In this document: positions 10,194-31,949 of the stretch, piece after piece
How positions within the stretch are numbered: position 1 is the stretch's first letter
Layout of the letters: each line of letters starts with the position of its first letter
NCBI GenBank assembly: GCA_000830275.1
Contig: CP010424.1
Span: forward strand, 622,782 to 686,781
DNA length: 64,000 bases
Reading direction: 5' to 3'
From: an archaeon GW2011_AR10
GTDB taxonomy: Archaea; Iainarchaeota; Iainarchaeia; Iainarchaeales; GW2011-AR10
Position numbers and translations under genes: made by a program
The notes under the pieces: generated by a model
The model's input: the letters and a program-made list of their open reading frames with translations, nothing else
Database searches by the model: none
What the model was told of the DNA's origin: nothing

Positions 10194-10302
10194 AGTAGTA
10201 CCCCCAATCAAAATTTTTTTTAGAACCCGCCATGTTCTACATCTGAAAGCGATATCAAGGCAAGAATTAATAAGCAGTTTGCACTTTTTTTTATTGGATT
10301 TT

Positions 10303-11049: not shown

Positions 11050-11059
11050 GCGGGAAAGC

Positions 11060-12831: not shown

Positions 12832-15800
12832 CTAATTTTTTTCTCTTCGAATGTAAACAAAGACCGCAATTAATGAAACAATGAAAAGTGCTAAAACAAC
12901 AGGGTTTTCTGGAAGCGATGGAAGGTTAAGCAGGCTCTTGTCGGTTTCCCCTACCTGCAGGTTAAGCACGTTGCCTGAAGCAGTTGAAGTTACCTCGTTG
13001 TTGGGGCCAACTCTTGCAGAAATGCCTTCGCGGAAAGCCTCAATCAAAGGCAGCAGCTGGGCGTTTTCAGCATACCACAAGCCTTTCTCCGGGTCATAAT
13101 AGAATGCCCCGTTCCTTCCCTGCGCTGAAGTAAGAACCTCTGGCTTCTGCCCGTCGAAGGAAACTGTTGGAACACCGTTTTCTGCAGCAAAGTCAAGCGT
13201 GTGCTTTTTGCCGTTCTCGTCAATGAATTCAAGGCCATTTGGAGTGGCTCTTGCAGTTCCAGCAAAGTCTTGAATCTCGCCTGTTTCCTTATCTATTACC
13301 CTCAAATGGTCCTTGCATGCTCCTGTTTCATCTCTTTCCGAGCTCAGCACATACCTTTTGGTCGGGGTTTCAAATACTTGGAAGGGGCCGAATTTTTTTA
13401 AGGAAGTATTGAATGCAGCAACCTTTGCTTGGTTCGCGGGACTATTGGGGTCGCCTTCCACTTGGAAGTCAAGAGCTGGTTCCTCGCACTGGTTTTCAGG
13501 GTTAGTGGAGGAAGTCAGGTCAGTGTCAAGGCCCCTAACATCGTTTTGTTCAAGTATGCCCTGCTCGTGGTGCCTTAACCAAATAAGGTAACAGCCGTCA
13601 GGCCTTGCAACAATCATTCCATTCTTGAACTGGATTGACTTAAGCGAGCCAACTTCCGGAATCCCATCATTAGAGCTTGAGAGCGCAACATCATTGTTTG
13701 CAAGTACATTTATTGTTGAAATGTTTCCTACAGCAATTTTTCTTGGAACTCCTTCAGCGACAATCCTGTCACCTAATGGCCTGATGTTGGGGTGCGTAGT
13801 GGTTATAACGGAATTCACCAACCCAAATGTTGAGGTTAAATTGTTTCCCCCAACCAAAGGCAAACCAGTCTGCTGCATCACTCCATCCTGCAGGCACGCC
13901 CGCGCTTCAGGATGTGTTATGAATGCCTCGCCCCTTGCATTCACCTGAATTGCAACATCAGCTGTTGGAGGCAAGCAGACAGTTGTCAATGTTCTTGGAA
14001 CTTTTTTAGCTGGAATGCTTAGCTCAAGGTCATCTCCGGCCAACCTTGCTGCATCCTCGTTCTCTACAATAGGCTTTCCATCAAAGAGTATCTTGCCGTT
14101 CTCGAAATCAAAGTCAAGGCCTTTCCCTGTTGTTTTGTCTTTCACTGTTTCCTTTCCCTCTGTTTTGTATTCGCCGGAACTCATCTCGCAGCCCGGTCCA
14201 CACCAGAAATAGAACAGCTTTCTTCCCTTCAGCTGGCCTGAGCTCTGACCTTGAATGCTCAAGCGTGCCTGAACAATGTTTTTTTCCTCGGAATCATTCA
14301 CAAACTTTTTGATGTCATTTCCGATTCCTTCAACCTGCTCTTTGACCAATGAGTCTTCACTGCTGCCGCTGAATGCACCGGTTATCTGCTCGTTGAGGTT
14401 GCCAATAAAATTGGAAACTTTTTCAGTTGAAAGCTCCACGTTTCCTTCATCGTCCCTCTCCTCCATTGGAGGAACAAGGTAATGCACGAAGTAGCCTTCC
14501 TCAACATCAACGCAGTCCTGAAGCTTTGGAGCGTAAAGGGTTTGAATTGCAACAGTGCTGAATGCTCCAGGCCAGAAAAAGGTTGCGTAAGCCAAGGTTT
14601 CAATGCCGCCAAGCACTCCACCAATGCCGCCTTCTTCAGGCAGGAATGGAGCAATTTTTTTTGCTGTGGCATAACCAGGCAAAGAGAACACTGCCTGCTT
14701 GCAGGTTTTTGGTTCCCCTTCGGGCTGCACGAATTCCTGGCCCCTGTCCCTTGCCTCGAATTCTTCCTGCTCGTTGCTCCAGGCATCATGCAAATCAATT
14801 CGTTCCCCTTCAATGTCCCCAGTGCTTCCCTTCAAGTCCATGTGGTGCGCGAAAGCAATCAGGGTTTGGCCTTTCTGCAAGGCATCCTCCGAGCGCGTGT
14901 CCTCAAGAATGTAGGCATCGAAAGGCCTGCCGACAACAAAGAAGGGGTTAAAGTCCTCCAAGTTGGCTGAATTCAATGTGACAAAACAGTCAACGCATTC
15001 ATTGGGGCCAGTCAAGTAAAACGCAAGGCTTTCGGTTTCATTCCTCAGTTCCCTTCCTGAGAGCTTGTTGTAAAAGTCCGCAACAGGATTGAATTTATCG
15101 CTTACTTCATCAAGCACAAGCTTCCATGGAAGCTTGTTTGCAACCTGCACAAACAAATCGCCTTGATCAGAACCCTCATTTGCAAAGAAGTCAATGTATG
15201 CTTCAAAGTAAAGCGGCTTGTCTTGGAGCAGGAAGTCAACCTCGCTCCAAGTGTCTGGCAGCTGGTAAAGTGATAGGTCCTCAAAGCCTGCTCCTTTTTT
15301 GCTCCACCAGTAGCCAAACGGGTAAACAGTCCACTTTGCACCGCCCTTGAACGAAAAATAGCTCCTTATTATTTCGTCTTCTTCTGCCGCAAGCTTGTCA
15401 AGCCAGCTCCAGTAGCGCCTTGAAACCCAGTTTCGTTCACGGAGAGTATTAAGCATTAAGTCAGTATTCACTTTTGACCTCAAAACGTTTGAACCAACCC
15501 TTGCGTTTGTCAATGCAGATGAAAGCTCTTCCGGAGTAAGCACTTTAGAAGGCCCCCAGTTTCCTTGAACAATTGTAGGGTTGCCGCCAATCCTGTTCTG
15601 AATTAACGGAATGCTTGCATCAGTGTAATGGATGTATTCGCCCATGTCGGTTTTTACCCAAGTATTGGCATAGCCTTTGGCCGCCCTTTCAAGGTTGCTG
15701 TAACTTAAGGCCCTAAACTCTGTTGTTGTGGCAGGGTCAAAGCCATAAAGTATGAGGTTTCCAAACTCGTCAGTTTCATAGGCGCTGCGGTACTTGTTTA

Positions 15801-17661
15801 TCTCAGCCGTAAAGTTCCTCCAGTTGCCAGAGTCAACGAATTTATCCAGAATTACGCGGAAGTTCCTGTGCTCTGAGAACAAGTCAAGAACATCGCCTGT
15901 GTTCACCTGCTTTACTCCCTTGTCATACAGGCCCATATTGACATGCCTGACAATCCATTCAGGAAGGTCGGCTCCCATTTGGTCATCCGCAGTTGTGAGG
16001 AACTTTGCAAAAGAACGGCCATAATCAACAAGGGCTTTTTTCCCTTCAGGGTGCGTTAATGGGTCAATTCCTTGGTCCCTTAGTTTGTTAAAAATATTTG
16101 AGTATACTTTCTCTGACTGTTCCACTTCGTGGAGGCCGCCCCTCCATATTGTCCTCAGGTCTTTCATGACGCGGACAAACTCTGCTTTCTTTTCAAGAGT
16201 GTCAATTGATTCAAGGAATCCGCCTTTCGCCTGCTGTTTTCCCCACCAGTCAAAGAACTCCTGGGTTTTAATAATTGGGTAGCCTGTGCCATCAGAGCTG
16301 CCGATTGTCATGCTCTGCCAGAAGTCACGCCAGCCGTACTTGTCAATTTTTGACTGCATCCTTGAAACCTTAAGGTCTCCAAGGAAAGAGCCAGGAGTTT
16401 CAAATGTTGCCCTGAACCTGTCAGCGTAATCTGTGAGTTTTCCTTTCAGGCCAGGCAAGAGGCCTCTTCTCGCATTCCAGCCGAACATTTTTTTTGCTGC
16501 ATAGCCAAGGCTCGGCCCGAAATTTGTTACAACCATTTCAGCGCTCAGCCACTGGTTAAAGTATTTGTCAAACATCGAGTAAGTTGTTATAATGCAGTCG
16601 TTGCTGATGCAGTTGGTGCCGAATTCTGCGTCAAACTCCTGTGCAAGAATCGAGTTGGGAAGCAACTCTGTTTCCAGTCGAGTTGCGGTTTTAATGTGGT
16701 TGGGAAAAGAACATATGCTGTTATCCCACACCATTCCAGCTGAAGTGCATGAAGCTTCATCTCTTGGGGTTTCAATGCACTCTCCTGTTACCTTGCTGTA
16801 AAAGTTTTTTGCTCCATCAGTGCACTGCTCCTGGGAAACTTCTTTCCAGAGCTCTTCCTGTCCTTCCTCAGTGAAAACCGCTGCTGCCAGAACTTCCTGC
16901 TCTTCTGATGTGAACTCTGGCTTTTCTGTTGAGTTTTCATCAGTGAACCAGCTCTTTATTTTGTCGTATCCGCTGCCGAAAGCTTCCTTGATTGGTTTAA
17001 AATCTGCAGCAATTCCTGAACCGGAATTTCTGTAAGTGAGGTTTTTTCCTGTAAGCCAGCAGTTCTGGTCGTAGTCCTTGCATCTCCCTGTACGCAGAGA
17101 ATCATCAAGCACAAGACCGAAAGCGAAAGGCCCCTTTATGTGCCTGTTCAAGTAATTGCTTATCTCCCAAGGATTAAATTTTTTGTTTGGCAAGTCGGCT
17201 TTTGCCGTGACGTTTTCGTCCTGCTGCGATTTCAGAATGATGTTGTTTTCTTTCAGCTCATCCCTGTCATCAATCTCGTTTTCTGTTTGCTGTGGAAGAG
17301 CATCACCGCTTATCTCTTCTCCAACAAAGCCGTCTTTCAGGAGGTTTAGTATGTTGTTGCTTTCAGTTGGTGTAAGAGAACGGGACTCGCAGACATAACC
17401 CCTGTTTGGGAAAGGCGAAGGTATCGGCACTATAGGAGAAGTTGCAGGAGGAACTGCAGGTATTATTGGAGGGGGTTGTGGCACAGCATCAGGCGTCGGA
17501 TCAAGCACTGTTGCATCTGCACCCTGAAATGCGGCAGAATTTTCGTTTTCAGTTGGATTTAAAGGTTCTGGTGCCTGTTCAGCGTAATAGTCCTGCGCGT
17601 TGGCAGGATAAGTGCTAAGCAGAATTATTGCAATCAAGAAAAGGCTTGGAAGTTTCCTCAC
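12832..17661 (-). CDS. Large secreted surface protein (1,609 aa) with N-terminal signal peptide and C-terminal transmembrane anchor
   Basis: N-terminus MRKLPSLFLIAIILLSTYPANAQ; C-terminus PENPVVLALFIVSLIAVFVYIRREKN. Plus-strand ORFs inside it are treated as frame shadows. Confidence 0.6.
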   Translation of the reverse strand: MRKLPSLFLIAIILLSTYPANAQDYYAEQAPEPLNPTENENSAAFQGADATVLDPTPDAVPQPPPIIPAVPPATSPIVPIPSPFPNRGYVCESRSLTPTESNNILNLLKDGFVGEEISGDALPQQTENEIDDRDELKENNIILKSQQDENVTAKADLPNKKFNPWEISNYLNRHIKGPFAFGLVLDDSLRTGRCKDYDQNCWLTGKNLTYRNSGSGIAADFKPIKEAFGSGYDKIKSWFTDENSTEKPEFTSEEQEVLAAAVFTEEGQEELWKEVSQEQCTDGAKNFYSKVTGECIETPRDEASCTSAGMVWDNSICSFPNHIKTATRLETELLPNSILAQEFDAEFGTNCISNDCIITTYSMFDKYFNQWLSAEMVVTNFGPSLGYAAKKMFGWNARRGLLPGLKGKLTDYADRFRATFETPGSFLGDLKVSRMQSKIDKYGWRDFWQSMTIGSSDGTGYPIIKTQEFFDWWGKQQAKGGFLESIDTLEKKAEFVRVMKDLRTIWRGGLHEVEQSEKVYSNIFNKLRDQGIDPLTHPEGKKALVDYGRSFAKFLTTADDQMGADLPEWIVRHVNMGLYDKGVKQVNTGDVLDLFSEHRNFRVILDKFVDSGNWRNFTAEINKYRSAYETDEFGNLILYGFDPATTTEFRALSYSNLERAAKGYANTWVKTDMGEYIHYTDASIPLIQNRIGGNPTIVQGNWGPSKVLTPEELSSALTNARVGSNVLRSKVNTDLMLNTLRERNWVSRRYWSWLDKLAAEEDEIIRSYFSFKGGAKWTVYPFGYWWSKKGAGFEDLSLYQLPDTWSEVDFLLQDKPLYFEAYIDFFANEGSDQGDLFVQVANKLPWKLVLDEVSDKFNPVADFYNKLSGRELRNETESLAFYLTGPNECVDCFVTLNSANLEDFNPFFVVGRPFDAYILEDTRSEDALQKGQTLIAFAHHMDLKGSTGDIEGERIDLHDAWSNEQEEFEARDRGQEFVQPEGEPKTCKQAVFSLPGYATAKKIAPFLPEEGGIGGVLGGIETLAYATFFWPGAFSTVAIQTLYAPKLQDCVDVEEGYFVHYLVPPMEERDDEGNVELSTEKVSNFIGNLNEQITGAFSGSSEDSLVKEQVEGIGNDIKKFVNDSEEKNIVQARLSIQGQSSGQLKGRKLFYFWCGPGCEMSSGEYKTEGKETVKDKTTGKGLDFDFENGKILFDGKPIVENEDAARLAGDDLELSIPAKKVPRTLTTVCLPPTADVAIQVNARGEAFITHPEARACLQDGVMQQTGLPLVGGNNLTSTFGLVNSVITTTHPNIRPLGDRIVAEGVPRKIAVGNISTINVLANNDVALSSSNDGIPEVGSLKSIQFKNGMIVARPDGCYLIWLRHHEQGILEQNDVRGLDTDLTSSTNPENQCEEPALDFQVEGDPNSPANQAKVAAFNTSLKKFGPFQVFETPTKRYVLSSERDETGACKDHLRVIDKETGEIQDFAGTARATPNGLEFIDENGKKHTLDFAAENGVPTVSFDGQKPEVLTSAQGRNGAFYYDPEKGLWYAENAQLLPLIEAFREGISARVGPNNEVTSTASGNVLNLQVGETDKSLLNLPSLPENPVVLALFIVSLIAVFVYIRREKN

Positions 17662-19681: not shown

Positions 19682-20582
19682 GGGAAACCTGCCGAGAAGG
19701 CTTCGGCATAGAAAGCAGGCAGCTGATGCCAAGGCAGTTGAGAAGAAGTCCAGCGGCTTCTGGGATAATCTTTTTGGGAAAAAAAAAGCAGAAGAAAAAA
19801 AAAGCGAAGCAGTAGAACCAGAGCCTGACAGGCTGAGAAAAAAGCTGAAAGAAGAGAGCGATTACTTGGCTTCAGCAGAGGTCGGCAAATTCAAAGAAAA
19901 ACATAACAGGATTCCTACAAGAAAAGAACTGGATGAAATTTCTGAAACAATTTACAGCCAGCTTAAGAAAGAGACAAGAAAAGAAAGGGAACGCGAGGAA
20001 AAGCCAAGCAGGAGAAGGGAAAAGCACGGGAAAGAAAGAACACTGCTGGAGAAACGAAGGGCTGAGAGGAAAAGGCACAGGAGAAGAGAAGAAGTTGGCC
20101 GCCGAGAAAAGCTGGAAGAAGACGAAACAGAAGAAGAAAATGAGGAAGAAGCACTCCAGCTTGGAAGAGCTGAACCAGAAATCGGGAAAGGGGAAGAACC
20201 ACTTATTTCAGAGGAAGAGGAAAAAGAAATAAGCGTGAAGGACTTGCTGAAAGAAGAAGCAGGCGGAAAAGAAGAGGAAAGAGAAGAAACTACTGATGAA
20301 GATTATGACAAGCTTTCACTTGAAGAGCTGACGGAAACGGAAGAGTTTGGCAAAATAGGCAGCGAGCTTGAACGCAGCGGAACTGAATCAATCACAAAAG
20401 AGATTGAAACAGAGAAGAAGTGCCCTCACTGCGGCACAAAATCATCCGATATTGTTTTCTGCTCTGGCTGCGGAGCAGGATTCTGTTCCCACTGCGCGAA
20501 AAAGGTTGAAGTGCAGGAAGAGCACATAAAGTATGTCTGCCCTTCATGCGGCAGCGAGTTCAGGGTAAAAAGGCACAAGTGA
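19674..20582 (+). CDS. Highly charged protein with C-terminal double zinc ribbon
   Basis: C-terminus CPHCG-x10-CSGCG...CSHC-x14-CPSCG; K/E/R-rich remainder. GTG start overlaps the previous ORF by 8 bp in a different frame; two A9 tracts at 19779-19787 and 19795-19803. Confidence 0.4.
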   Translation: MGEGNLPRRLRHRKQAADAKAVEKKSSGFWDNLFGKKKAEEKKSEAVEPEPDRLRKKLKEESDYLASAEVGKFKEKHNRIPTRKELDEISETIYSQLKKETRKEREREEKPSRRREKHGKERTLLEKRRAERKRHRRREEVGRREKLEEDETEEENEEEALQLGRAEPEIGKGEEPLISEEEEKEISVKDLLKEEAGGKEEEREETTDEDYDKLSLEELTETEEFGKIGSELERSGTESITKEIETEKKCPHCGTKSSDIVFCSGCGAGFCSHCAKKVEVQEEHIKYVCPSCGSEFRVKRHK

Positions 20583-20588
20583 AAAATT

Positions 20589-21374
20589 TTACCTGCACGC
20601 TGAAGAATCAAAGTGCTCAATGCCTGCTTCAATGCAGCACCACTCAGAACTCTTAAAGTAGGGAACAGAACCTACTTCTGTCGCATCCCACAAAACCAAA
20701 TCTGCCTGCGTTTCAAATGGCCTGAAAGTTATCTCGTCCTCTGCAACCATTGTTATTTTGGCTGAAGCCTGCGCTGTGTCGCCAACCCGGATAATAAGGT
20801 CTTTCAGGCTGTTGTTGATTGTGCCAAAGTCAGCATTTTCCCCAATGCTGCACAGCAAATCAGTTCTTGGAGGGTCATCAGCAACAAAGTTTGGAAACCT
20901 CCCTGTTCCAATGTTCTCAAAGTTTGTTTTGTGGAAAAAAATGAAGATGAATTTCTGCCTCACATCCTCTTGGTCTCTTGGAACAGAAAGATAGAAAATG
21001 TAATCAAAGTTGTCTCCAAGAGGAGCCATTATTGAATTGATGTCCTGCGCTAAAATCAGCATTGTTTTCTCTGTGAGGTAGCGCTTGTCGGCATAATCTT
21101 CCTTCACATAAGCAAGCAGCTGGTCAATTTCAACTTCACTACTTAAGCCGTAAATTGAGCTGTCTGGGTTTCTTGGAGTGCTGCTGTAAAGAATTGTTTT
21201 AAGGGCATCCGTTGCAAAATCAGAATTGTAGTTCTGCACTATCTGCGCTGAAACAGTGTTGCCGTATCCATTGGAGAAAGAGAAAAGGAAAACGCTGATT
21301 GAGGTAACTATCAGGAGAAAGTAAAGAGCATCTGTTACTGCTGCTTGGCCTCTGTTTTCCTTTAAGGCATCCAT
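20589..21374 (-). CDS. Pilin-like protein with archaeal class III signal peptide
   Basis: N-terminus MDALKENRGQAAVTDALYFLLIVTSISVFLF: charged residues, Gly, then a hydrophobic helix. Confidence 0.5.
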   Translation of the reverse strand: MDALKENRGQAAVTDALYFLLIVTSISVFLFSFSNGYGNTVSAQIVQNYNSDFATDALKTILYSSTPRNPDSSIYGLSSEVEIDQLLAYVKEDYADKRYLTEKTMLILAQDINSIMAPLGDNFDYIFYLSVPRDQEDVRQKFIFIFFHKTNFENIGTGRFPNFVADDPPRTDLLCSIGENADFGTINNSLKDLIIRVGDTAQASAKITMVAEDEITFRPFETQADLVLWDATEVGSVPYFKSSEWCCIEAGIEHFDSSACR

Positions 21375-21901
21375 GTAACCACCACCAAGTGCATTGGCTT
21401 AATAACCCTGTTGTCTTCAACTGCAATCGGGTAAATCCTTGCAACAATTTCTTTGTCGGCAAAAAAACGGTAAGCAAAGCTAGGGGAAGAAGAAATGTCG
21501 CTGTTAATTGCAGGGTCAATGTTGTGGCATGAGAACTCGTTGCCTGCTTCATCCAAGAAAAAGCCCACGTTGTATAGCCTTGCATCCTGGGCATTGTATT
21601 GCAGGCTGTATTGGTCTGTGGCAGTATAATAGTTTGTTATTCCCGCGCGGAATTTAAGGTTTGGAATGCTGAGTGTACTGCACAGCGCTTTGAAGTTCTC
21701 GTAGCCACTTATATAGCTTGTGCCTTTAAGGACTTTGGCAATTTTTATCACTTTGATGTCAGAATCGAACTTGGAGTTTTTATTGTCAAAGACACCGAAA
21801 GCGAAAGTAAAGGTTGAAAAAAACATTATCAGCGCGAAGAGCAGTGGAATCAGGGAAGGCAGGTCATCTCCAATCGGCCCCAAAAAACCTTTATTCAGCA
21901 A
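21362..21901 (-). CDS. Pilus-associated protein with N-terminal transmembrane helix
   Basis: N-terminus MLNKGFLGPIGDDLPSLIPLLFALIMFF; overlaps the downstream gene by 13 bp, so it belongs to the operon. Confidence 0.4.
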   Translation of the reverse strand: MLNKGFLGPIGDDLPSLIPLLFALIMFFSTFTFAFGVFDNKNSKFDSDIKVIKIAKVLKGTSYISGYENFKALCSTLSIPNLKFRAGITNYYTATDQYSLQYNAQDARLYNVGFFLDEAGNEFSCHNIDPAINSDISSSPSFAYRFFADKEIVARIYPIAVEDNRVIKPMHLVVVTWMP

Positions 21902-22587
21902 GTGAAACCAACCCCTGGGTAAACGCTTTCACCCACGCTTGATTTTATGGCATTGCATGTCGGGCCAACGCTGCATGGAAAAATGTAGAGGGAGCTTTGC
22001 CCCCTCTTGATTTCCTTAACTAACTGAATTGAATCCATTGGAACTCTGGCCTGAGGGTCAATGTAAACAGATTCCCCTGTGTCAGTGGCCAGTTCGCGGA
22101 GTGTTCCAATTCCCCCGTACTCGTCACCCAAATAGTCTTGGCTGAAAAGGGTTACTTCTGCTTTTGTTTCAAAGGATTTTGCTGCAATTGCTTTTGGAAT
22201 GTAGGAAGGGTCATTAATTGATTTCACGAGGTCGCGCCTCGGGAAAACCGAGAAAATAACTTTCGAGATTGTTTCAGGGCCTGAGGGAAGCTCTTTCTCA
22301 AACTGCGTTACACTTATTTTCATCACATAGTAGAATTCTTGGCCGCTTACATCAAGGGAGCGCGGGAATGTATGTGAATCAGAAAAACAGTAAGCGGGGG
22401 AAGAAGCAACACTGCTTGCTTTGGTGAGAACCCTGTCAAGCAACAGCTGTGCTTCCTTCACCTTGACTATGTCGATTAAGCCGAAAGTGAAGAAGGCAAC
22501 GATTGCAAAAATTGATACCACAAGTATCAAGAGATTCATTTTGCTTAAAATGAAGCCAAGCATTGTCAAACCCTCTTGTAAACGCAA
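21895..22587 (-). CDS. Pilus-associated protein with N-terminal transmembrane helix
   Basis: N-terminus ...MNLLILVVSIFAIVAFFTFGL; overlaps neighbours on both sides. Confidence 0.4.
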   Translation of the reverse strand: MRLQEGLTMLGFILSKMNLLILVVSIFAIVAFFTFGLIDIVKVKEAQLLLDRVLTKASSVASSPAYCFSDSHTFPRSLDVSGQEFYYVMKISVTQFEKELPSGPETISKVIFSVFPRRDLVKSINDPSYIPKAIAAKSFETKAEVTLFSQDYLGDEYGGIGTLRELATDTGESVYIDPQARVPMDSIQLVKEIKRGQSSLYIFPCSVGPTCNAIKSSVGESVYPGVGFTC

Positions 22588-23111
22588 ATCCTTGGCTGCG
22601 GGGAGAACAAGTGGAACTGCTTGATTAAAGTGTACTGGCCGGGCTCAATTGCTTCGTCTTTCTTCCATTCCTTTACTTTAAATTCTGTTGGCTGGTCGTC
22701 AAAGTCGTGGCAGACTGTTGCGGAAGGAAAATCCGTTGCAGAAGAAATGTTAAGACACTTTATTGAACTGAAGTCAGGCGAGGAAAACAAAAGCAGAGTG
22801 CATTCATAGCGCAACCCGCCACAATGAAAAGAGCAAGTGGCCCGGTCATCCCTGCTGACAATCCTCAGCGAGCTATCATTCTGGTTAAAGCAGGACGGCA
22901 TATCGTATGCAACAGTTTTTTTGCCTTCGCCTTTTGCAACTGTTTCAAGCGCAGTCTTCAATTCCTCCATGTTCTGGTCAATTTTGCCTTCACACTGCGC
23001 TCTCAGCAAAGTGCTCATTGCATTGAGCCCTACAACTATCACAAAAGTCATTGTTATTACTGCAATCAGCAGCTCGAAAGGGGCTGCTTCCTGGCCTTTC
23101 TGGCTGAGCAT
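22566..23111 (-). CDS. Pilin-like protein with archaeal class III signal peptide
   Basis: MLSQKGQEAAPFELLIAVITMTFVIVVGL; start chosen at the internal M because K-G-Q sits right before the hydrophobic helix. The track ORF extends to 23162. Confidence 0.55.
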   Translation of the reverse strand: MLSQKGQEAAPFELLIAVITMTFVIVVGLNAMSTLLRAQCEGKIDQNMEELKTALETVAKGEGKKTVAYDMPSCFNQNDSSLRIVSRDDRATCSFHCGGLRYECTLLLFSSPDFSSIKCLNISSATDFPSATVCHDFDDQPTEFKVKEWKKDEAIEPGQYTLIKQFHLFSPQPRICVYKRV

Positions 23112-23220
23112 GGTAACAAGAATACTGTAAAGAGATATATAAAGATTCTCAGAATCAATCAACAGGTATTGAGGGCAAGCATTATGAGCTGTTTGTGTTA
23201 CTGTAAAAAAACGCAGTGTT

Positions 23221-23388
23221 TTACTTATTGAAATACTTGGCCTGCTGCCTGCTCCAAACCTTATTCGGAGTTTTTTTCAGCCATTCAGCGTACATGTCGA
23301 TAAATTCCATGCGCTGCTGCCTGTTTCTCCTCATTTCCTCTTTAAGCTCTTTCAAATCTTTTTTTGTAAGCTTTAGCCCTTTTCCCAT
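23221..23388 (-). CDS. Small charged protein (55 aa) inside the pilus operon, not in the ORF track
   Basis: Hand translation: MGKGLKLTKKDLKELKEEMRRNRQQRMEFIDMYAEWLKKTPNKVWSRQQAKYFNK; ATG ends at 23388, TAA at 23221-23223. Confidence 0.3.
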   Translation of the reverse strand: MGKGLKLTKKDLKELKEEMRRNRQQRMEFIDMYAEWLKKTPNKVWSRQQAKYFNK

Positions 23389-23547
23389 AAAATTTTCTCC
23401 GCCTGCTTTTCAACCCTGAAATTTTGAAAGCTCTCTTTCAAAAACAATCCTGTTTCCCTTGAATTCCAGTTCCATAAATTAATCTGCCAACAAACTTAAT
23501 TTAACCATTCTCAAGCAAAAAAAGTATCCAAGTATTTGAAGTAGTAG

Positions 23548-23706
23548 TCAGTTTATGAGCGGCTGCCTTTTAACTATTTCCTGGCTCTTCTTGAACATTG
23601 GCTTAATCAAAGCAATCAGCAAAAGCGCTGCAATAATAAAAATAATGATTAGGTAAATTGAGCTCCATTCACCCTGCGCCCTTTCACCTAATTCAGGAAA
23701 TCCCAT
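23548..23706 (-). CDS. Small hydrophobic pilin-like protein (52 aa), not in the ORF track
   Basis: Hand translation: MGFPELGERAQGEWSSIYLIIIFIIAALLLIALIKPMFKKSQEIVKRQPLIN; short charged N-terminus, Gly, then one helix, like short Flp-type pilins. Confidence 0.4.
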   Translation of the reverse strand: MGFPELGERAQGEWSSIYLIIIFIIAALLLIALIKPMFKKSQEIVKRQPLIN

Positions 23707-23752
23707 ATAGAAAAAGAATGGAAAAAGAAGTATTTAATGATTGGTGTTAGGT

Positions 23753-24301
23753 TTAACTTGCCGGAATAATGCTTACAAGGCAAATCCTTTCAGTGTTTGA
23801 GGGGTCAAATATTGCTGTTCCACCGCCACAAAAGCTGTTGTAGCCGGAAAACACTGTGTCAAGCCTTGCTTCTAGGACGGTTTCCTCAACCCTGTTCGCG
23901 TTATCGCAGAGCACGTATAGCTTCTGCTGCTGGTCAGAGTTGCCGTTGTAGCGAATCCAAGAGCCTTGAGCAACTTCCTCATAGTTAGGGTTGCTTCCTG
24001 AAACAGTGTCAGAAATTAAAACGCAAAGCTGGTGCTCTCCAAGCGAACCAGTTTTTTCTGCAATTGTCCTTGACCTCAGGCTTGTGCCGTTCTTGAATGT
24101 TACTAATCCTGTTCTTTCAGGCGTGCCCAAATTGTTGATGAGTGTCTTAATTTTTGAGGACGCTTCCTCTGTGGGGTCGCCTTGGCTTGGGGGCGCAATC
24201 TGCGTTAAAATCTGCAGCAGAATTGTGAGAATGAATACTGCAACAATTGCTGCAATCAACAGCTTGAAAACGCTGAAAGCCTGCCCTCTCTCATTCAACA
24301 T
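23753..24301 (-). CDS. Pilin-like protein with archaeal class III signal peptide
   Basis: MLNERGQAFSVFKLLIAAIVAVFILTILLQIL. Confidence 0.6.
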   Translation of the reverse strand: MLNERGQAFSVFKLLIAAIVAVFILTILLQILTQIAPPSQGDPTEEASSKIKTLINNLGTPERTGLVTFKNGTSLRSRTIAEKTGSLGEHQLCVLISDTVSGSNPNYEEVAQGSWIRYNGNSDQQQKLYVLCDNANRVEETVLEARLDTVFSGYNSFCGGGTAIFDPSNTERICLVSIIPAS

Positions 24302-24366
24302 AGCAATCGTAAATAGAAACTCTTAACCCATATTTAAAGGTTTTGCTTTAATTCGGCTATAAACAG

Positions 24367-24813
24367 CTAAGGCGTAATTGGTTTAGAGAAAGAGAACTTG
24401 CAGCAGATTTCGCAGGTTGAATCGCAAAAGGAGGCAGGGTCAAGGTTTGTTGTGCACTGCGCGTAAAAGTTTGTTTCAATGCGGTAATTTACCAGTATTC
24501 TTTGCGAGTCAACAGTGAAAGAGGAACTGCTTGGAGCAAGAATTTCAACGCATTGCCCCTCTAATCCTGTTCTTCTTGCAAGAAAATCTTTAGTATAAAC
24601 TGTGCCTTTGTCGAAGAGGAGGTTTTCAACAACAAGAATGTCATTGTTTGGCTGCTGCACCGCGTTCTCTAATCCTTCAAGAAAACGCTCTTTGCTCACG
24701 TTTATTTTGAACTCCTCAAAGGAACGGATTGCACCGAGAATTATTAATAAAATCAGCAGCGCAACTATTGCGCCAATCATCATCTTGAACGGCTCAAACT
24801 GCCCTTTCTCCAT
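24367..24813 (-). CDS. Pilin-like protein with archaeal class III signal peptide
   Basis: MEKGQFEPFKMMIGAIVALLILLIILGAI; start chosen at the internal M (track start 24831). Confidence 0.6.
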   Translation of the reverse strand: MEKGQFEPFKMMIGAIVALLILLIILGAIRSFEEFKINVSKERFLEGLENAVQQPNNDILVVENLLFDKGTVYTKDFLARRTGLEGQCVEILAPSSSSFTVDSQRILVNYRIETNFYAQCTTNLDPASFCDSTCEICCKFSFSKPITP

Positions 24814-24852
24814 ACTAAAAACATCTCCCAATTTTTTTTAGTGTAAAAAACA

Positions 24853-27210
24853 TTAAGCCAAAAATCCGCCGACGAGAATGTTGGAAATAATTATGCTTAA
24901 AACGAAAATTATAACTGAAATTGGGAAAAAGCGCGCAATGTTTATTCTCACCAGCAAATCGTTGTCCTCCTCTATTTTGGTGGTGAAGTAAGTCATTATG
25001 AGGAGAAGCTCCACAACGTAGATTGCAACGATGATTACGAACTGCGTTGGAGTAGCCATTCCAGCAACTGCTGCCGGGTCAATGAAGCTTCCAACGTTTA
25101 TGCCAGAAAACGTGTTTGGAATGCCTGCTCCTCCTGGAACATCAAGGTTGCTCAGATCAAGTTCCGTTGCAATATTGGAAGAAGCGATGGAGGAAAGGGT
25201 TATTATTACGATTTTCTGCAGGCTTGTTGTAATGCCCAAAACCATCGGCGCAATGAATAGGCTCATTGTCTTCATCATTCCTGTTACATCAGAAACCAAA
25301 ATCTTCAAATTGTTTGCAACCTTTTCCGCGTTGTCGAGCTGGATGCTTAACGCAATCATTGTCCTGGCAGCAACGTTCACCCCCAATTGCACTGAATCAA
25401 CAAGCAGCCTCACTGAACCGCTAATCAACGAGCTTGGAATGTTTTTCAATGAACCATAGTTTGGGTCAAAGAATGCCTGCTCTAATGGCATTGCAAGCAA
25501 GGCAATGTTGTCAAGCGTTTTCGAGAAAATCCTTTTCGATATTTTGAACTGTGGCAAAAAATCCATTGTGTGCTTTAATGCTTCCTCCACCGGCTTGTTT
25601 TCACCCATGCGGGAAGCAAGAATGTAGATTGAGTCCTTGAACTCTGACTCCATTTCAACAATTTCAAGCTGGGCTTTCCGCTTGTAAATGTTGTTGTAGT
25701 AGAGGTAAACAAACACTGAAAGTGAAACGGTTATGAGCAGGCCGAAAATGAAATTGTAGGGAGTAATATCGTTGGCCGGCTTCGTGAAAAATGCCTGTTC
25801 CTCGCTTTTCACGCGTTTCTCTGCTTCCTCAACAGGAAAACCCTGCGCAATCAGCTCATTGTAAAGCACTCCTGTGGGAATGTCAAAGTATTTCAATTGG
25901 TAGCCTGCTTTTGAAAGAACTTCAGTCCTTTGCTTGTCTAATGCAAGCAGCTGCGGCGTGCCTTCCTCAAGGCCCAAAGCATCGTAAAGAATTTTTGGCG
26001 GAACTCCTTGCTGTGAAACAAAAAAGGAAATTGAGCTTCCTGCAATCAACACAACAACAACCACGAAGAAAATGCTCACAAAGCCGTTGCCTAACCTCAT
26101 TGTGCCCTTCGGCGGCAAACCCGGAAAGTTGTCCTTTATTTCAGGCGCAACATACGTTGGTGGGCGCTTGCTTATAACGGAGAAAGCAAACCAAAGCGTA
26201 ACCAAAGGAATTATTATGTTGTAAATGGCAAACAAAACAATTGGGTTTGCAAGCGGTGCGCCGCTGAAAGAGCTCCCTACAGGAAGAATGATTATCAGAA
26301 TCAATGGAAGCAGCACCCCAACATAGAAGAGAATCATTGTTGGCTGGTTGAGGTCGCGAGCATACTGCTCCATTTTGTTTTTTATTGACTCAAGTATTTC
26401 ATCCATTGTTTGGTCAAGCAAAGCAAAACGCTTTGCTTCAGTTGTTTCAATCACTGAAGCGCGGATTCGCATCAACGCTTTCTTGAATTCATCGCTGAAT
26501 GCACCCCAGCGGTAAGCCAGTGCATCGCTTGCTTCTGCAACAGACGAGTAAACTCCCAACTGGACATCCCACAAAAGTTTTTTGAAGTCTTCAGCAATTT
26601 TGCCCCTGCCGTGCTCTGCTGCAAACTCAATGCTTTTCTCCAGGTTCGGGCTTAACTTCATTGACATAACCATGTAGCCGAGGATTTCAGGAACATAAGT
26701 CAAAGCACGCACCTGCTCTGCTCTTGCCTCCTCCAAGGGATAGTTTTGAACATAATATGTTGCAAAAACCACCATGCCAAGCAATGGGAGGAGAATGTAG
26801 ATTGGCGTAAGAAAGGTTGCCCCGCCAACGAATAGGTTTACAACCACTATTGCAGGGGACAGGAAAATAATTCCTGCAATTACTATTGCAGCAAGAAAGC
26901 TCACAATCAGCACGAACTTGTACGCTGCACCAAGCTCTTCCCCATTTAGCTCCCAACCCAGAAACTCCACTGCCTTCTTGTTCTGCTCTGAAAGCGCTTC
27001 ACCTTTTCCTAGTGAAGGAGCCATTGCGTGAATGCGCTTGCAGAACCTAACAAAAGGGTGCTGTTTTCTCCTTACAAGCGTTCTTTCCTCATTCTTGAAC
27101 TCGTCCTTGACCACGGCTATTTCCCTGTAAAGCTCTCCAATAGAGCTTGGCCCATCAAACAGCTTCTCTTCTTCTTCCTGCTCTCTTTCTTCCCTGTCTT
27201 TTCTCGCCAT
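24853..27210 (-). CDS. Type IV pilus platform membrane protein (FlaJ/TadC-like, two-domain, 785 aa)
   Basis: Polytopic; helical bundles alternate with two soluble regions, as in two-domain T2SSF platforms; sits directly downstream of the ATPase. Confidence 0.55.
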   Translation of the reverse strand: MARKDREEREQEEEEKLFDGPSSIGELYREIAVVKDEFKNEERTLVRRKQHPFVRFCKRIHAMAPSLGKGEALSEQNKKAVEFLGWELNGEELGAAYKFVLIVSFLAAIVIAGIIFLSPAIVVVNLFVGGATFLTPIYILLPLLGMVVFATYYVQNYPLEEARAEQVRALTYVPEILGYMVMSMKLSPNLEKSIEFAAEHGRGKIAEDFKKLLWDVQLGVYSSVAEASDALAYRWGAFSDEFKKALMRIRASVIETTEAKRFALLDQTMDEILESIKNKMEQYARDLNQPTMILFYVGVLLPLILIIILPVGSSFSGAPLANPIVLFAIYNIIIPLVTLWFAFSVISKRPPTYVAPEIKDNFPGLPPKGTMRLGNGFVSIFFVVVVVLIAGSSISFFVSQQGVPPKILYDALGLEEGTPQLLALDKQRTEVLSKAGYQLKYFDIPTGVLYNELIAQGFPVEEAEKRVKSEEQAFFTKPANDITPYNFIFGLLITVSLSVFVYLYYNNIYKRKAQLEIVEMESEFKDSIYILASRMGENKPVEEALKHTMDFLPQFKISKRIFSKTLDNIALLAMPLEQAFFDPNYGSLKNIPSSLISGSVRLLVDSVQLGVNVAARTMIALSIQLDNAEKVANNLKILVSDVTGMMKTMSLFIAPMVLGITTSLQKIVIITLSSIASSNIATELDLSNLDVPGGAGIPNTFSGINVGSFIDPAAVAGMATPTQFVIIVAIYVVELLLIMTYFTTKIEEDNDLLVRINIARFFPISVIIFVLSIIISNILVGGFLA

Positions 27211-27224
27211 AAAATGGTTTCACT

Positions 27225-29504
27225 TCAAGACTTTGTTTTGGCAATTATTCCCTTAATTAAGTGGTTTTTTACCCAGTTCTTCCACTCGCCCAGAACCTCT
27301 TCGTAGTCAACGGAACCGTGTTCTTCAAGCTGGTCCTCCTTCAATAGCATGAGCTTGTTGTTTGCAAGAACCGCGTTTTCTGCTTCAAGCAGAGAAGGAA
27401 TTGAATTCTTGTTCTTCATTTCCACCAAAAACTCTTTTGCCGAGCCATTCATTCTTATGCTCCTCCAGATTTCTTCAAGGTTGAGGCCGCTCATCTTGCT
27501 TATCTTTGAGAACATCTCGCTTTCCTTAAGGTTGTCTTCAAGCAGTTCAAGCTCGTCTTTTTTTGCGTCATAACTCATTAGGTCCAGCAAACCGCCCTCT
27601 CTTTCAGGATCCTCAATCCAGTGCTTTTTCACCTCTGTTATCTGGACAATTCTCCTGTTCCTCTGCAGTGACCCGGAAAACCTTATCGGCCTTGCAACCA
27701 CGACAACATCAGTTGCCTTAAACGAAGTGTTTGGAACATCCAAGTCATTCACTACCCTATCCCACACAGAGTAAGCGCTTTCACCGTGGATTGTTCCCAT
27801 CACAATGTTTCCCGCAGCACCAATTCTCATTGCCTCGTACAGAACCCTTGCTTCCTTGCTCCTCACTTCACCTATGATTAGGGCAGAATCTCCCAAACGA
27901 AGCGCTGTCCTCAAAGCTTCCTCTGGCGCAACCTCAGAGGAAGTGCCGCCAGCAGCAATAGGTGAACGCGTTTTAAGCCTCTGGATGTTGAAGCCTATGT
28001 TCTTCATGTAAGGAACTGGAAGTTCCAAGGTGTCTTCCTGCACAATTATTCTCGTGCTCTGGATAATTTCAAGGATTAGTGCCTGCATCAAAGAAGTTTT
28101 TCCGCTGCCCCTTGAACCAGTAACCAGCATTGTTGCCTGTGCGTCAACGAAAAAAGAAAGCAGGCCTGCTGAAAGAGGAGTTAAAAATTTCACGTCAACA
28201 AACTGGGGCAGCGTCCAAGGAGTAACCTTATGCAGCCTGAAAGCAAACGCGATTCCGCTCGGCGCAAGCGGCGGGCCAATGACTGCAACCCTTGTCTCCA
28301 TGTCAGGCAAATCAAAGTCCAGGACTGGATGAGCTTCATCAAATGGCCTGCCTGACATTGCACGCATTTTTGATACAAGCGAACTTGCCTCTCCTTCAGT
28401 GTAAAGAATGTTGGTTTCGCACTGGCCAAAGTCAGAGTGAATAACGTAAAGCGGCTTCTGCCCGATGGGAGAATCAATGAAAATGTCTGTGAGGTTCCTG
28501 TCAGAGAGCAGCAGTTCAAGGATTCCGTAGCCGACAGTGTACCTTGCAACAATCTGGCTTAACTCAATTATTTCATCGTTGCCAAGAGAAATATTGTTCT
28601 CTTTCGCGATGTCCTTGATTGTTGACTGGTAAACGCGCTCAAAGTACTTCCTGCTTTTCGCAAGCTCGCTTAAAGAGGTTTTTCCAGGCCTGTACGATGC
28701 AACGATTTCCCTTGTCTTGCTCAAAATGAAGTACTTGTCCGGGGGCAGGGAATACTCTGGGGGATTGACAATGTAAAGCTTCTGCGGCTTGTTCGGGTGC
28801 TTGAATATCTGCACTGTTGTATCCTTCACTTGGTATTCGTCCAGAAGCTCCAGCTTTTCCTCTTCTTCAAACAGCAGCCTTGAACCGATAAAGGAGGGTT
28901 TTACCTGCGCTTCAAAGAACGGCTTGTACATTTCTTTTGTGTCAGGAACTGTTTTCAGCTTCAAAAGAATCTGTTTGGCTTTCTGGACAAGCATTGTGCT
29001 GTCAAGGTTCTTCTTTATGTAAAGCAGGGTGCGAAGGTAAACATCAGAGTAATGCTCTTTGTCCTCAGAGCTAAAGCGCTCCCTTTCCTTGCTGATGGCG
29101 CGGAGCAGTTCAAGGTAAGAATAAATCGGGTCAAACAACAGGGTATCGTGAGTGATTTTAACAATAGTGTTGTGCCTTTCACCGAAGTCTTTTTCGCCCT
29201 CAATTTTTGCATCCCCTAAAAACTTGTAGCTCCACACGCTTTCAATCTCTAATTTTTGCGCAACCCTCGAAATTTCCTCCAGAAGCTTTTTCTGCTCCTC
29301 GCTGTAAACCCTTTCGTACACTTCAGCCAAAACAATGTCGTCAACTTCCACTTCTTGAAGCAGGCTGAAGACATGGTACCTGCATGCAGGGTCATCAGCG
29401 ATTGAGGAACTATAAACGCAGTCGCGACAGTCAAAAATCAGGTGCCTCTTGTTGCCTTCCTCTTTAACCGCCCAAGGGCCTACTTCAAAACCGCCGATTT
29501 TCAA
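27225..29504 (-). CDS. Type IV pilus assembly ATPase (FlaI/ArlI/PilB-like) with extended N-terminal domain
   Basis: Walker A TGSRGSGKTSLMQAL, Asp box IIVQEDTLEL, Walker B/His box ALIIGEVRSKEA...GTIHGESA; 759 aa, about 200 aa longer than typical FlaI. Confidence 0.8.
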   Translation of the reverse strand: MKIGGFEVGPWAVKEEGNKRHLIFDCRDCVYSSSIADDPACRYHVFSLLQEVEVDDIVLAEVYERVYSEEQKKLLEEISRVAQKLEIESVWSYKFLGDAKIEGEKDFGERHNTIVKITHDTLLFDPIYSYLELLRAISKERERFSSEDKEHYSDVYLRTLLYIKKNLDSTMLVQKAKQILLKLKTVPDTKEMYKPFFEAQVKPSFIGSRLLFEEEEKLELLDEYQVKDTTVQIFKHPNKPQKLYIVNPPEYSLPPDKYFILSKTREIVASYRPGKTSLSELAKSRKYFERVYQSTIKDIAKENNISLGNDEIIELSQIVARYTVGYGILELLLSDRNLTDIFIDSPIGQKPLYVIHSDFGQCETNILYTEGEASSLVSKMRAMSGRPFDEAHPVLDFDLPDMETRVAVIGPPLAPSGIAFAFRLHKVTPWTLPQFVDVKFLTPLSAGLLSFFVDAQATMLVTGSRGSGKTSLMQALILEIIQSTRIIVQEDTLELPVPYMKNIGFNIQRLKTRSPIAAGGTSSEVAPEEALRTALRLGDSALIIGEVRSKEARVLYEAMRIGAAGNIVMGTIHGESAYSVWDRVVNDLDVPNTSFKATDVVVVARPIRFSGSLQRNRRIVQITEVKKHWIEDPEREGGLLDLMSYDAKKDELELLEDNLKESEMFSKISKMSGLNLEEIWRSIRMNGSAKEFLVEMKNKNSIPSLLEAENAVLANNKLMLLKEDQLEEHGSVDYEEVLGEWKNWVKNHLIKGIIAKTKS

Positions 29505-31028: not shown

Positions 31029-31586
31029 ATGCACAAAAAATTTGAATTTCTGAGTAAAACTTTTTCAGAGAAAGAAATACTTAAAGCAGGAAAGTTTCTT
31101 TTGGGCTTAGCTGCATACTTCATTGCGCTGAGCTTTCTTGTTTCACTGGTGCCGCTGGAATTGGTTGAATTCTTTTTTGCATCAGTTTCACTTTTCTTTC
31201 TTGGGTTTTTTGGCTTTTCGGGAGAACTGGTTTTCACGGAACCAGTTATCATGCAATTGCAGGGCTTGGAGCAAGGAATTGCAATAACCTATCTTTGCAC
31301 TGGCCTGCTGGAACTGGTGCTGCTTGTTTCAGCTGTTGCCTCCTCGTTCGGCATTGAATGGAAAAAAAGAATTATTGGAGTTATTGCTGGCGCAATTGCA
31401 TTGGTTGCGTTCAACGTTTTCAGGATAGTTTCAAGCATTCTGATTATTCTTTGGTTTGGTTTGGAGGCAGGTGGCTTTTCGCATGACCTGTTGTTCAGGG
31501 TTTTTTTGTTTGCAACCGTTGCCGGCTACTATTTTGTGTGGTTTAACTGGGCCACAAGACTAAAAAAACTGAATTCCACCTTATAG
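31029..31586 (+). CDS. Small polytopic membrane protein, possible exosortase/archaeosortase-family
   Basis: Five to six helices; a helix-embedded Cys (ITYLCTGLLEL) and a downstream N-x-x-R (AFNVFRIV) resemble the conserved Cys and Arg of that family. Weak, motif-level only. Confidence 0.3.
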   Translation: MHKKFEFLSKTFSEKEILKAGKFLLGLAAYFIALSFLVSLVPLELVEFFFASVSLFFLGFFGFSGELVFTEPVIMQLQGLEQGIAITYLCTGLLELVLLVSAVASSFGIEWKKRIIGVIAGAIALVAFNVFRIVSSILIILWFGLEAGGFSHDLLFRVFLFATVAGYYFVWFNWATRLKKLNSTL

Positions 31587-31949
31587 CATTATAGTGTTTT
31601 CTCCTTCAAAGTGTTTGTCCCCAGTAACAATCGGCAGATTGTACTGCTTTGCTGTTGCAAGAATGATTGCATCAATTAAACCAAAATCCTTGAAGTTTTT
31701 TCTTTTTTCTATTTTTAATATACCTGATGTTTCCAATTGTTCTTGGTTGACTTCGATAATTGTAGACAGGTTTTTAACAATGTGAAAAATTTTTTGCCGG
31801 TTAAGTTTGCTTTTTTCAACCCACTCGCTCAGCTCTGCAATAGAAATAGCACTTGTGAAACACTGGTTATTAGCAATAACTTCTTTTACTTTTAGGCCCC
31901 TGCTAGTACCATTAAATAATTCAATCCAAGCATATGTATCCAAAAGCAC
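31581..31949 (-). CDS. vapC: PIN-domain toxin VapC
   Basis: N-terminal MLLDTYAWIE (first acidic residue) and C-terminal PIVTGDKHFEG are the PIN-domain signatures. Confidence 0.8.
   Translation of the reverse strand: MLLDTYAWIELFNGTSRGLKVKEVIANNQCFTSAISIAELSEWVEKSKLNRQKIFHIVKNLSTIIEVNQEQLETSGILKIEKRKNFKDFGLIDAIILATAKQYNLPIVTGDKHFEGENTIML

Follow-up and report, generated by a model that had tools for sequence, protein, structure and literature searches.

A type IV pilus-like gene cluster with an enlarged secretion ATPase and a neighbouring archaeosortase-family gene in an Iainarchaeota archaeon

Introduction

Which surface machine is encoded by a gene cluster that sets a secretion ATPase and a polytopic membrane platform beside a row of small proteins with hydrophobic N-termini? 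The cluster occupies positions 20589–29504 of a 64-kb stretch (64,000 nucleotides) of the genome of archaeon GW2011_AR10 (contig CP010424.1), which we refer to as the window. The source organism is a DPANN archaeon belonging to the Iainarchaeota (Diapherotrites). Attachment to other cells is the presumed way of life of DPANN archaea, but which organelles they use for it has mostly been guessed from annotations stating that type IV pili are present. A preliminary description, made from the sequence of the window alone, interpreted the cluster as an operon for an adhesive type IV pilus. Here, we compared the cluster with protein family models, solved and predicted structures, and its counterparts in related genomes. 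We consider it very likely that these genes specify the machine with which this lineage assembles a type IV (type IV pilus-like) filament.

Results

Gene arrangement, secretion ATPase, and platform

The cluster comprises ten consecutive open reading frames (ORFs) of 759, 785, 148, 182, 52, 55, 181, 222, 179, and 261 aa. All lie on the minus strand between the ATPase start at 29504 and the final stop at 20589, exactly as first described. The eight smaller products are denoted by their lengths (p148 to p261); with the longest possible starts, p148, p181, and p222 would reach 154, 198, and 230 aa, respectively. The same ten-gene set appears in the public gene calls of identical metagenomic contigs. 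Identical proteins are found on groundwater metagenome contigs, including a contig of the Joint Genome Institute and GCA_013332025.1, and the homologues carry the names Candidatus Diapherotrites or Iainarchaeum. The guanine-cytosine content of the window is 41–48%, and scans for transfer RNA genes and Rfam families detected neither in it. The preliminary description counted nine genes, a figure that is too low for the ORFs and correct for the conserved core, since p55 is restricted to this species. It also had the genes abutting or overlapping by 7–22 bp. This holds for the last four genes (p181, p222, p179, and p261), which are joined by a 2-nt gap followed by 7-nt and 13-nt overlaps, the p181/p222 junction becoming a 22-nt overlap with the longest start. 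The remaining junctions, in contrast, are gaps of 14, 39, 65, 46, 159, and 109 nt.

The ATPase is translated from a TTG codon preceded by GGTGA 6 nt upstream, and the N-termini of its homologues agree with this start. The protein consists of an N-terminal domain (residues ~1–290), a core (~291–650), and a C-terminal helical extension (656–758). It matches the Pfam T2SSE model with an E value of 8e-17, and the Walker A box (GSRGSGKTS), the Asp box (EDT.E), the Walker B box (GEVR), and the His box, with H573 in GTIHG as its histidine, are invariant in 58 sequences. The top NCBIfam matches are FlaI (138.6 bits, E = 2.7e-40) and TadA (131.6 bits). Since the former score, obtained with the equivalog model NF058587, lies below the cut-off of 550 bits, the ATPase does not reach the level of a FlaI equivalog. 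Among solved structures, sequence searches found GspE of A. fulgidus (2oap, E = 5e-30), CpaF (2e-27), and FlaI (4e-22), all aligned to residues ~291–684 only. Foldseek searches with the AlphaFold2 model (pLDDT, predicted local distance difference test, 76) were likewise headed by 2oap (6e-27), with FlaI at 1.5e-26 and CpaF at 4.6e-21; the C-terminal extension is well predicted in this model. Both the ATPase and the platform had been noted as larger than FlaI/FlaJ-type proteins, and the lengths bear this out: 759 aa compared with 511–513 aa for the solved GspE and FlaI, and 785 aa compared with 465–570 for FlaJ models. The additional ~250 aa of the ATPase are accounted for by two additions, the N-terminal domain and the C-terminal helical extension.

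The N-terminal domain contains a near-invariant C26-x2-C29-x11-C41-x2-H44 motif, which probably constitutes a zinc site; a minority of homologues, such as P0042, P0080, and P0103, do not have it. No match to the domain was found in Pfam, and a profile search against the PDB gave no credible one. When 1.84 billion representative clusters were searched exhaustively with HMMER, 155 of them contained the domain; it invariably forms the N-terminus, in proteins of ~715–790 aa, or of ~1260–1780 aa when inteins are present. The few named members derive from metagenome-assembled genomes labelled 'archaeon', except for one labelled 'bacterium'. The domain is thus confined to the group of enlarged ATPases, the named members of which belong to DPANN-type archaeal assemblies. 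Across the phylum, members of the ATPase family are 61–78% identical along their full length. Of the listed homologues, about one in ten reaches ~1270 aa through an intein with LAGLIDADG and splicing domains (P0017, P0025, P0084, P0087, P0099, P0102, P0104, P0113, P0114, and P0120). In P0017, the intein lies inside the catalytic Asp box, directly after VQED.

The platform aligns with the Pfam T2SSF model over residues 179–310 at 24.6 bits, just under the cut-off of 25.2, and 60 of 62 members of its family match the model in the same region. Its database homologues are mostly annotated as 'hypothetical'. The AlphaFold2 model (pLDDT 84.7; predicted template modelling score 0.78) is all-helical and displays two cytoplasmic six-helix blocks (~157–316 and ~485–685), the second of which mirrors the helix pattern of the first. 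This matching pattern suggests a second cytoplasmic block, as the preliminary description of a two-domain platform implied. The two-domain arrangement is taken from the helix pattern of the model, since an hhalign comparison of the N- and C-terminal halves was not significant (Prob 1.2%), and an internal duplication was rejected accordingly. A fusion of two TadC-like genes could not be demonstrated either, because both split platform proteins of a second filament locus in the window align by hhalign to residues ~127–352 only.

Six subunits carry conserved class III-type signals

Beside the ATPase and the platform, the cluster encodes seven N-terminally hydrophobic proteins. Six of them, where the preliminary description recognized four or five, possess a class III-type [K/R]-[G/A]-Q/F motif followed by a hydrophobic helix, and the motif is kept across 36–63 orthologues of each (Table 1). 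The residue following the predicted cleavage site is Gln in five of the six proteins ([KR][GA]↓Q) and Phe in p179. A six-frame scan for the motif followed by a hydrophobic stretch yielded eight matches in 64 kb, six of which fall within this 4.3-kb stretch, whereas codon-shuffled windows gave a mean of 0.13 matches.

Table 1. Predicted class III-type signals (↓, predicted cleavage site) and their conservation
Protein	Site	Conserved motif	Orthologues	Aligned N-terminus
p148	MEKG↓QFEPF	[KR]G↓QF..F+LLI	63	
p182	ERG↓QAFSVF	KGQAFSVFKLLIAAVVA	48	KG↓QAFSVFKLLIAAVVA
p52	ERA↓QGEWSS	ee.AQsEwssvY.livf.IaAlllI...KPMF	47	[KR]A↓Q[SG]EWSSVYLLIVF
p181	QKG↓QEAAPFELL	[KR]GQESAPFELLvAVI	41	[KR]G↓QESAPFELLVAVI
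p179	NKG↓FLGPIGDD	M..kGFiGPIGDDLPSLIPL	37	KG↓F[IL]GPIGDDLPSLIPL
p261	NRG↓QAAVTD	[KR]GQAA[VI]TDALYFLLIV	36	

The seventh protein, p222, begins with MLGF[IT]LSK, and its third position is variable (G, D, A, S, E, or M in 39 orthologues). Because the glycine is not conserved, p222 is probably an uncleaved accessory or anchor subunit. Of the two proteins previously taken as membrane-anchored accessories, p222 therefore retains this assignment, while p179, with its K-G↓F site, does not. The protein p148 is a paralogue of p182, and the two cross-match in phmmer (E ~1e-4).

The two short ORFs left unlisted in the preliminary description turned out to differ in kind. One encodes p52, a class III-type protein whose mature form after the predicted cut would have 42 aa, consisting of a single helix and a strongly basic tail. 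We regard p52 as the best candidate for the bulk or major pilin, of a short Flp/EpdE-like type; alternatively, it may be a small bitopic membrane subunit. No Flp Pfam match was obtained for p52 and 21 scanned orthologues. A role as an archaeosortase substrate was rejected: no cargo lies N-terminal of the helix, and the motif is unlike LPSLPExP. The other ORF encodes p55, a species-specific insertion outside the conserved core, with homologues only on this organism's own contigs.

TATA and oligo-T elements were read by eye. Oligo-T runs are located 3' of p52 and p55, and a TTTATATA box lies 25–32 nt 5' of the p181 ATG. From the position of this box, p181 is probably transcribed from a promoter of its own into a leaderless mRNA. 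Together, these elements suggest that the cluster comprises at least two transcription units.

Conservation of the cluster and its linkage to an archaeosortase gene

In a scan of one genome per species, relatives of the ATPase were found in 191 genomes, of which the 80 best loci were inspected. Synteny was counted by phmmer searches with the ten window proteins against all ORFs of 86 loci, namely these 80 and six contigs of the organism itself (L001–L006). The gene order is kept among related loci, and the nine-gene core occurs in dozens of Iainarchaeota species genomes; the lower counts for the downstream genes (Table 2) are largely due to contig ends. In 8 of the 80 genomes, the p52-p181-p222-p179-p261 block is located upstream of the ATPase on the opposite strand, and p52 always heads this module, whether relocated or not. 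Because of this relocation, we view the cluster as two modules that stay together. On one of the organism's own contigs (L004, scaffold ANAN16-1, 9125–11606), the operon breaks off behind p55: only 98 aa of p181 remain, and FtsK and helix-turn-helix genes take the place of p222, p179, and p261, which reflects either a real rearrangement or a chimeric assembly.

A divergent gene 1.5 kb upstream of the ATPase encodes a protein of 185 aa that scores 39.7 bits against NCBIfam TIGR04178 (cut-off 23) and fits no named subfamily of exosortases or archaeosortases. The residues C90, N129/R132, and H152/R157 are conserved, the count of 57 sequences applying to C90, R132, H152, and R157. A homologue lies at most 10 kb away in 56 of the 80 loci and in 40 of the 45 loci (~89%) whose upstream flank spans 5 kb or more. 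The distance to the operon has a median of 1 kb, and 16 copies are found within 300 nt. In three genomes with the moved p52-p261 block (L046, L047, and L072), the archaeosortase gene is situated within the operon, where it directly follows p182 on the same strand. A substrate candidate is encoded on the other side of the operon. In the 1609-aa protein and in all five of its orthologues with a complete C-terminus, NLPSLPE[DNQ]P is followed by a transmembrane helix and basic residues. This terminus is a typical sortase sorting signal, and the giant protein is the likely archaeosortase substrate. In the simplest reading, the giant protein is the client of the sortase, and both are inherited together with the filament as a single surface island.

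The archaeosortase may also be a member of the machine. As a working part of the filament, it would either anchor the LPSLPExP-CTERM protein at or beside the filament, creating a composite organelle for host attachment that is conserved across Iainarchaeota, or, more radically, process the [K/R]-[G/A]-Q proteins themselves in a lineage for which no prepilin peptidase linked to the operon was found. We consider such a role unlikely. If it were true in either form, the cluster would define a new sortase-coupled subtype of the type IV filament machine with its own ATPase N-terminal domain, and a functional coupling would join two surface-biogenesis pathways that have so far been studied separately. 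The literature searched contains no description of a sortase of this family co-inherited with a type IV filament operon.

Alternatively, the ten genes might comprise two functionally separate units side by side, a minimal pilus unit (ATPase, platform, p148, and p182) and an independent membrane or surface module (p52, p181, p222, p179, and p261) that would serve the archaeosortase and the giant protein instead of the ATPase. The relocation of the block in eight genomes, the TATA box of p181 with the oligo-T runs after p52 and p55, and the composition of p52 (a short motif, a transmembrane helix, and a basic tail) are compatible with such a division. It nevertheless appears very unlikely: wherever both could be seen in a genome, no more than a few kb separate the block from the ATPase, four of its five proteins share the [KR][GA]↓Q/F signal type with p148 and p182, and the block proteins, unlike the giant protein, bear no C-terminal sortase signal.

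Several further genes adjoin this region. The 180-aa membrane protein encoded next to the giant gene was rejected as an unusual prepilin peptidase because it has no conserved Asp. A 420-aa protein downstream of p261 has a homologue in 10 loci. A PIN-domain toxin and a small upstream partner form a toxin-antitoxin-like pair between the archaeosortase and the surface-protein genes.

Table 2. Coordinates of the cluster genes and of other features in the window, with the occurrence of homologues
Feature	Position	Strand	Homologues	Basis or remark
Secretion ATPase, PilB/FlaI/TadA superfamily, 759 aa	27225..29504	-	86/86 loci	T2SSE, motifs, structure matches
ATPase N-terminal domain	28635-29504	-		
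Polytopic platform, GspF/PilC/TadC/FlaJ type, 785 aa	24853..27210	-	80/86 loci	T2SSF family hits, AlphaFold2
p148, pilin-like, MEKG↓QFEPFKMMIGAIVALLILLIIL, Cys-rich C-terminus	24367..24813	-	69/86 loci, after platform	Motif conservation, synteny
p182, pilin-like, MLNERG↓QAFSVFKLLIAAIVAVFIL	23753..24301	-	60/86 loci	Motif conservation, synteny
p52, ..ERA↓QGEWSSIYLIIIFIIAALLLIALIKPMFKKSQEIVKRQPLIN, single helix and basic tail	23548..23706	-	52/86 loci	Motif conservation
p55, small basic soluble protein	23221..23388	-		DUF8150 (PF26477, precomputed); between p52 and p181
p181, pilin-like, MLSQKG↓QEAAPFELLIAVITMTFVIVVG, Cys-rich	22566..23111	-	46/86 loci	Motif conservation
p222, N-terminally anchored, MLGFILSKMNLLILVVSIFAIV	21895..22563	-	43/86 loci	Synteny; no conserved cleavage glycine
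p179, pilin-like, K-G↓F site, MLNKG↓FLGPIGDDLPSLIPLLFALIMFF	21362..21901	-	41/86 loci	Very conserved mature N-terminus
p261, largest pilin-like protein, MDALKENRG↓QAAVTDALYFLLIVTSISVF	20589..21374	-	40/86 loci	Motif conservation
Exosortase/archaeosortase-family membrane protein, 185 aa	31029..31586	+		TIGR04178
Secreted protein, 1609 aa, C-terminal LPSLPENP, transmembrane helix, RREKN	12832..17661	-	16 loci, downstream of operon	No Pfam domain
Polytopic membrane protein, 180 aa	17843-18385	-	22 loci	Always precedes 1609-aa gene; poorly conserved
Lys/Glu-rich protein, 302 aa, C-terminal double CxxC zinc ribbon	19674-20582	+	Neighbour in 26 loci	Convergent with p261
PIN-domain toxin and partner	31581-32168	-		
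Second type IV filament locus	6682-9736	+		Platforms at 8006-9736
Surface protein, 646 aa	3738-6423			Upstream of second locus
Peptidoglycan hydrolase, 1016 aa	32926-35976	+		
Giant paralogue, 2842 aa	41760-50288	+		
Protein with bacterial-style pilin N-terminus, 490 aa	50335-51807	+		Between first two giant paralogues
Giant paralogue, 2669 aa	52112-60121	+		
Giant paralogue, more than 1041 aa	60876-window end	+		

The cluster very likely encodes a type IV filament machine

Two observations could point to a divergent archaellum (motility) locus, namely that FlaI is the best NCBIfam match of the ATPase and that its homologues are called 'FlaI' in some sources. This assignment is hardly credible. 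The FlaI score falls far below the cut-off, and that of TadA is nearly equal. The ATPase bears large extra N- and C-terminal domains, and a 2026 preprint makes the case that minimal rotary ATPases and additions of this kind are incompatible (10.64898/2026.04.22.720090). The predicted signals have a +1 Gln of the pilin type, which FlaK of Methanococcus maripaludis does not process (PMC4371748). Furthermore, Pfam scans covered the window ORFs of at least 110 aa and the shorter genes of the cluster, leaving out the ORF that runs from 60876 off the right end; among the proteins scanned, neither Pfam nor NCBIfam models detected FlaH, FlaF/G, FlaC/D/E, FlaX, or archaellins, consistent with the preliminary statement that no FlaH-like or archaellin-specific genes were recognized. 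The T2SSE match with its four ATPase motifs, the six class III-type signals, and this lack of archaellum genes agree with the original proposal of a type IV pilus operon that is not an archaellum.

Five observations weigh against this proposal. First, the pilin and class III models of Pfam and NCBIfam recognize none of the seven subunit families (0 of 147 orthologues). Second, the subunits have neither the +5 Glu nor the QxSxE pattern of Epd pilins, position +5 being F, V, S, P, or T. Third, the basic residues of p52 lie C-terminal of its helix, which is atypical for a pilin and, by the positive-inside rule, would give an N-out/C-in orientation. Fourth, a regular-expression search, as distinct from a profile search, found no GxGD prepilin peptidase motif in the 64-kb window or in the 86 loci with flanks of at most 10 kb. 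Fifth, the second cytoplasmic domain of the platform is undetectable by sequence. Some of these points have parallels in known systems. The K/R-G-Q termini, while unmatched by the models, do correspond to the site cut by EppA-type peptidases: the Epd pilins of M. maripaludis have the sites RAQI, KGQV, KGQL, and KGQI, and EppA, which cleaves them, requires the +1 Gln, whereas FlaK refuses them (PMC4371748). The prepilin peptidase gene is unlinked in most archaea, and Micrarchaeota Mia14 combines two type IV pilus systems with a single unlinked FlaK (PMC5498576).

Considering these results, we propose the following model for the machine. The hexameric secretion ATPase would dock on the polytopic PilC/FlaJ-type platform in the membrane. 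The six precursors with short [K/R]-[G/A]↓Q/F class III-type leaders would be inserted by Sec, and a prepilin peptidase whose gene lies at another site in the genome would remove the leaders. With Gln at +1 in five of the six, this peptidase is predicted to be EppA-like. The trimmed proteins would then polymerize via their N-terminal hydrophobic helices into a non-rotating surface filament. The bulk of this filament would most plausibly be built from p52 as an Flp/EpdE-like subunit, whereas p148, p182, p181, p179, and p261, which are larger and Cys-rich, would act as minor or tip pilins, and p222 would stay uncleaved as an accessory anchored in the membrane. Attachment to surfaces or partner cells is the probable function of the filament, an adhesive role being a reasonable interpretation, and the filament would be inherited jointly with the archaeosortase-family enzyme and the giant LPSLPExP-CTERM protein in a single surface island.

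The core parts would be identical in a short pseudopilus or piston that functions in secretion, in the uptake of DNA or other macromolecules, or in the presentation of surface proteins instead of forming a long adhesive pilus. Type II secretion, competence pili, and the bindosome of Sulfolobus provide analogues. No feature at the sequence level distinguishes the two. The housekeeping-level conservation of the ATPase (61–78%), together with the inteins in ~10% of its homologues, suggests an essential rather than an optional function; minor-pilin-like proteins are numerous in the cluster, and none of its products is obviously an abundant globular pilin; the strongly basic tail of mature p52 could bind nucleic acid or envelope polymers; and genes for a sortase and a giant surface protein accompany the operon. 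These features would all suit a pseudopilus. However, none of the class III proteins possesses a substrate-binding domain, the ATPase reaches only 83 bits with the BasE model (cut-off 1000), and the scanned window ORFs include no ComEC or DprA-type genes. We therefore judge a pseudopilus rather unlikely and favour a surface filament with a probable function in attachment.

Other surface and filament genes in the window

The ATPase of a second type IV filament locus is compact, with 445 aa (T2SSE, E = 1e-35). This locus also encodes two platforms of 267 and 304 aa, each with a single domain, which match the N- and C-terminal halves of FlaJ/UpsF and thus represent a split, Epd/Tad-like arrangement. 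The same set was found nearby in only one related locus, L035. The 646-aa surface protein upstream of it starts with ..MQKKG↓IILAMVAVIVGIV and ends with a transmembrane helix and KKK. In at least two of three tandem giant paralogues, a shared N-terminal motif (..GLY.SLEGKYYDLLD..IP.Y..) is followed by a hydrophobic stretch, and those of 2842 and 2669 aa contain CarboxypepD_reg/Big_1/SpaA Ig-like domains. The 490-aa protein encoded between the first two has a bacterial-style pilin N-terminus (MTGIKG↓FTLFTALVAFILIV) and a weak match to ComGF. The secreted 1016-aa protein combines an N-acetylmuramoyl-L-alanine amidase domain (E = 8e-34) with PKD and glucosaminidase domains. As the archaeon itself makes no murein, such a peptidoglycan hydrolase hints at an interaction with bacteria; its gene is not a conserved neighbour of the operon.

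Discussion

Type IV filaments are widespread in archaea and have been noted in general terms for DPANN lineages, including Iainarchaeum. The present analysis provides a concrete, phylum-wide parts list, consisting of nine genes with six signal-bearing subunits, the N-terminal domain of the ATPase, and a co-inherited sortase and giant protein. Most of these parts are missed by current Pfam and NCBIfam models; annotators can now build models for them, and experimentalists gain targets in a group that has no genetic system. In the literature searched, we found no description of the nine-gene Iainarchaeota core, its signal motifs, the ATPase N-terminal domain, or the archaeosortase linkage.

Among characterized machines, the Epd pilus of M. 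maripaludis (type IV filament System 1) offers several likenesses: a multi-gene locus with many pilin-like proteins, the [K/R]-[G/A]↓Q site with its +1 Gln, and a candidate short major pilin without a globular domain, as in EpdE (10.64898/2026.04.22.720090). In the model organism, this pilus functions in adhesion (PMC4371748; 10.64898/2026.04.22.720090). Several differences are nonetheless evident. The Epd locus contains two platform genes, EpdJ and EpdK, in place of the single 785-aa protein, and it encodes a dedicated EppA, whereas the GxGD expression search found no such gene in the present locus. Epd pilins have a +5 Glu, which is absent here, as is any DUF361/Class_IIIsignal match, and the present ATPase bears a unique 290-aa N-terminal domain. 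Because of the single platform gene, the lack of EppA in the locus, and the lack of the +5 Glu, the cluster is not a clean Epd/System-1 member.

The Tad/Flp pilus resembles the cluster in its CpaF-like ATPase core and in combining a very short single-helix candidate pilin with several pseudopilin-like proteins. Unlike Tad, the cluster has one undivided platform in place of TadB and TadC, and it lacks TadV, a secretin, and TadZ. In addition, p52 shows neither a Flp Pfam match nor the G↓xxxxEY motif, and the ATPase is ~330 aa longer than CpaF. The cluster is thus not a Tad system. For the ATPase, GspE of A. fulgidus (2OAP) and FlaI (4IHQ) are the best sequence and fold matches over residues ~291–684, and both are devoid of the Cys3-His N-terminal domain (1–290) and the long C-terminal helical extension (656–758).

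Parallels in overall layout come from other DPANN loci, in which FlaI- and TadC-like genes are followed by signal-bearing proteins unlike known pilins (Makarova, Wolf, and Koonin 2019, PMC6393860; Mia14, Golyshina et al. 2017, PMC5498576). The failure of pilin models to recognize the present subunits fits the remark that DPANN type IV pilus loci encode unrecognizable 'dark-matter' pilins next to FlaI/TadC (PMC6393860). Two distinct systems per genome are also shared with the Mia14-type picture, as the predicted unlinked peptidase would be. The sortase side of the island likewise corresponds to described exosortase/archaeosortase systems (ArtA/PGF-CTERM and PEP-CTERM) in the family signature and in the neighbour's signal of a motif (LPSLPExP), a transmembrane helix, and basic residues, although the linked protein is small (185 aa) and falls outside the named subfamilies. 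The kind of machine is thus a known one, and the Iainarchaeota version is distinguished by the N-terminal domain of its ATPase, a barely recognizable platform, seven subunit families without models, and its linkage to a sortase gene.

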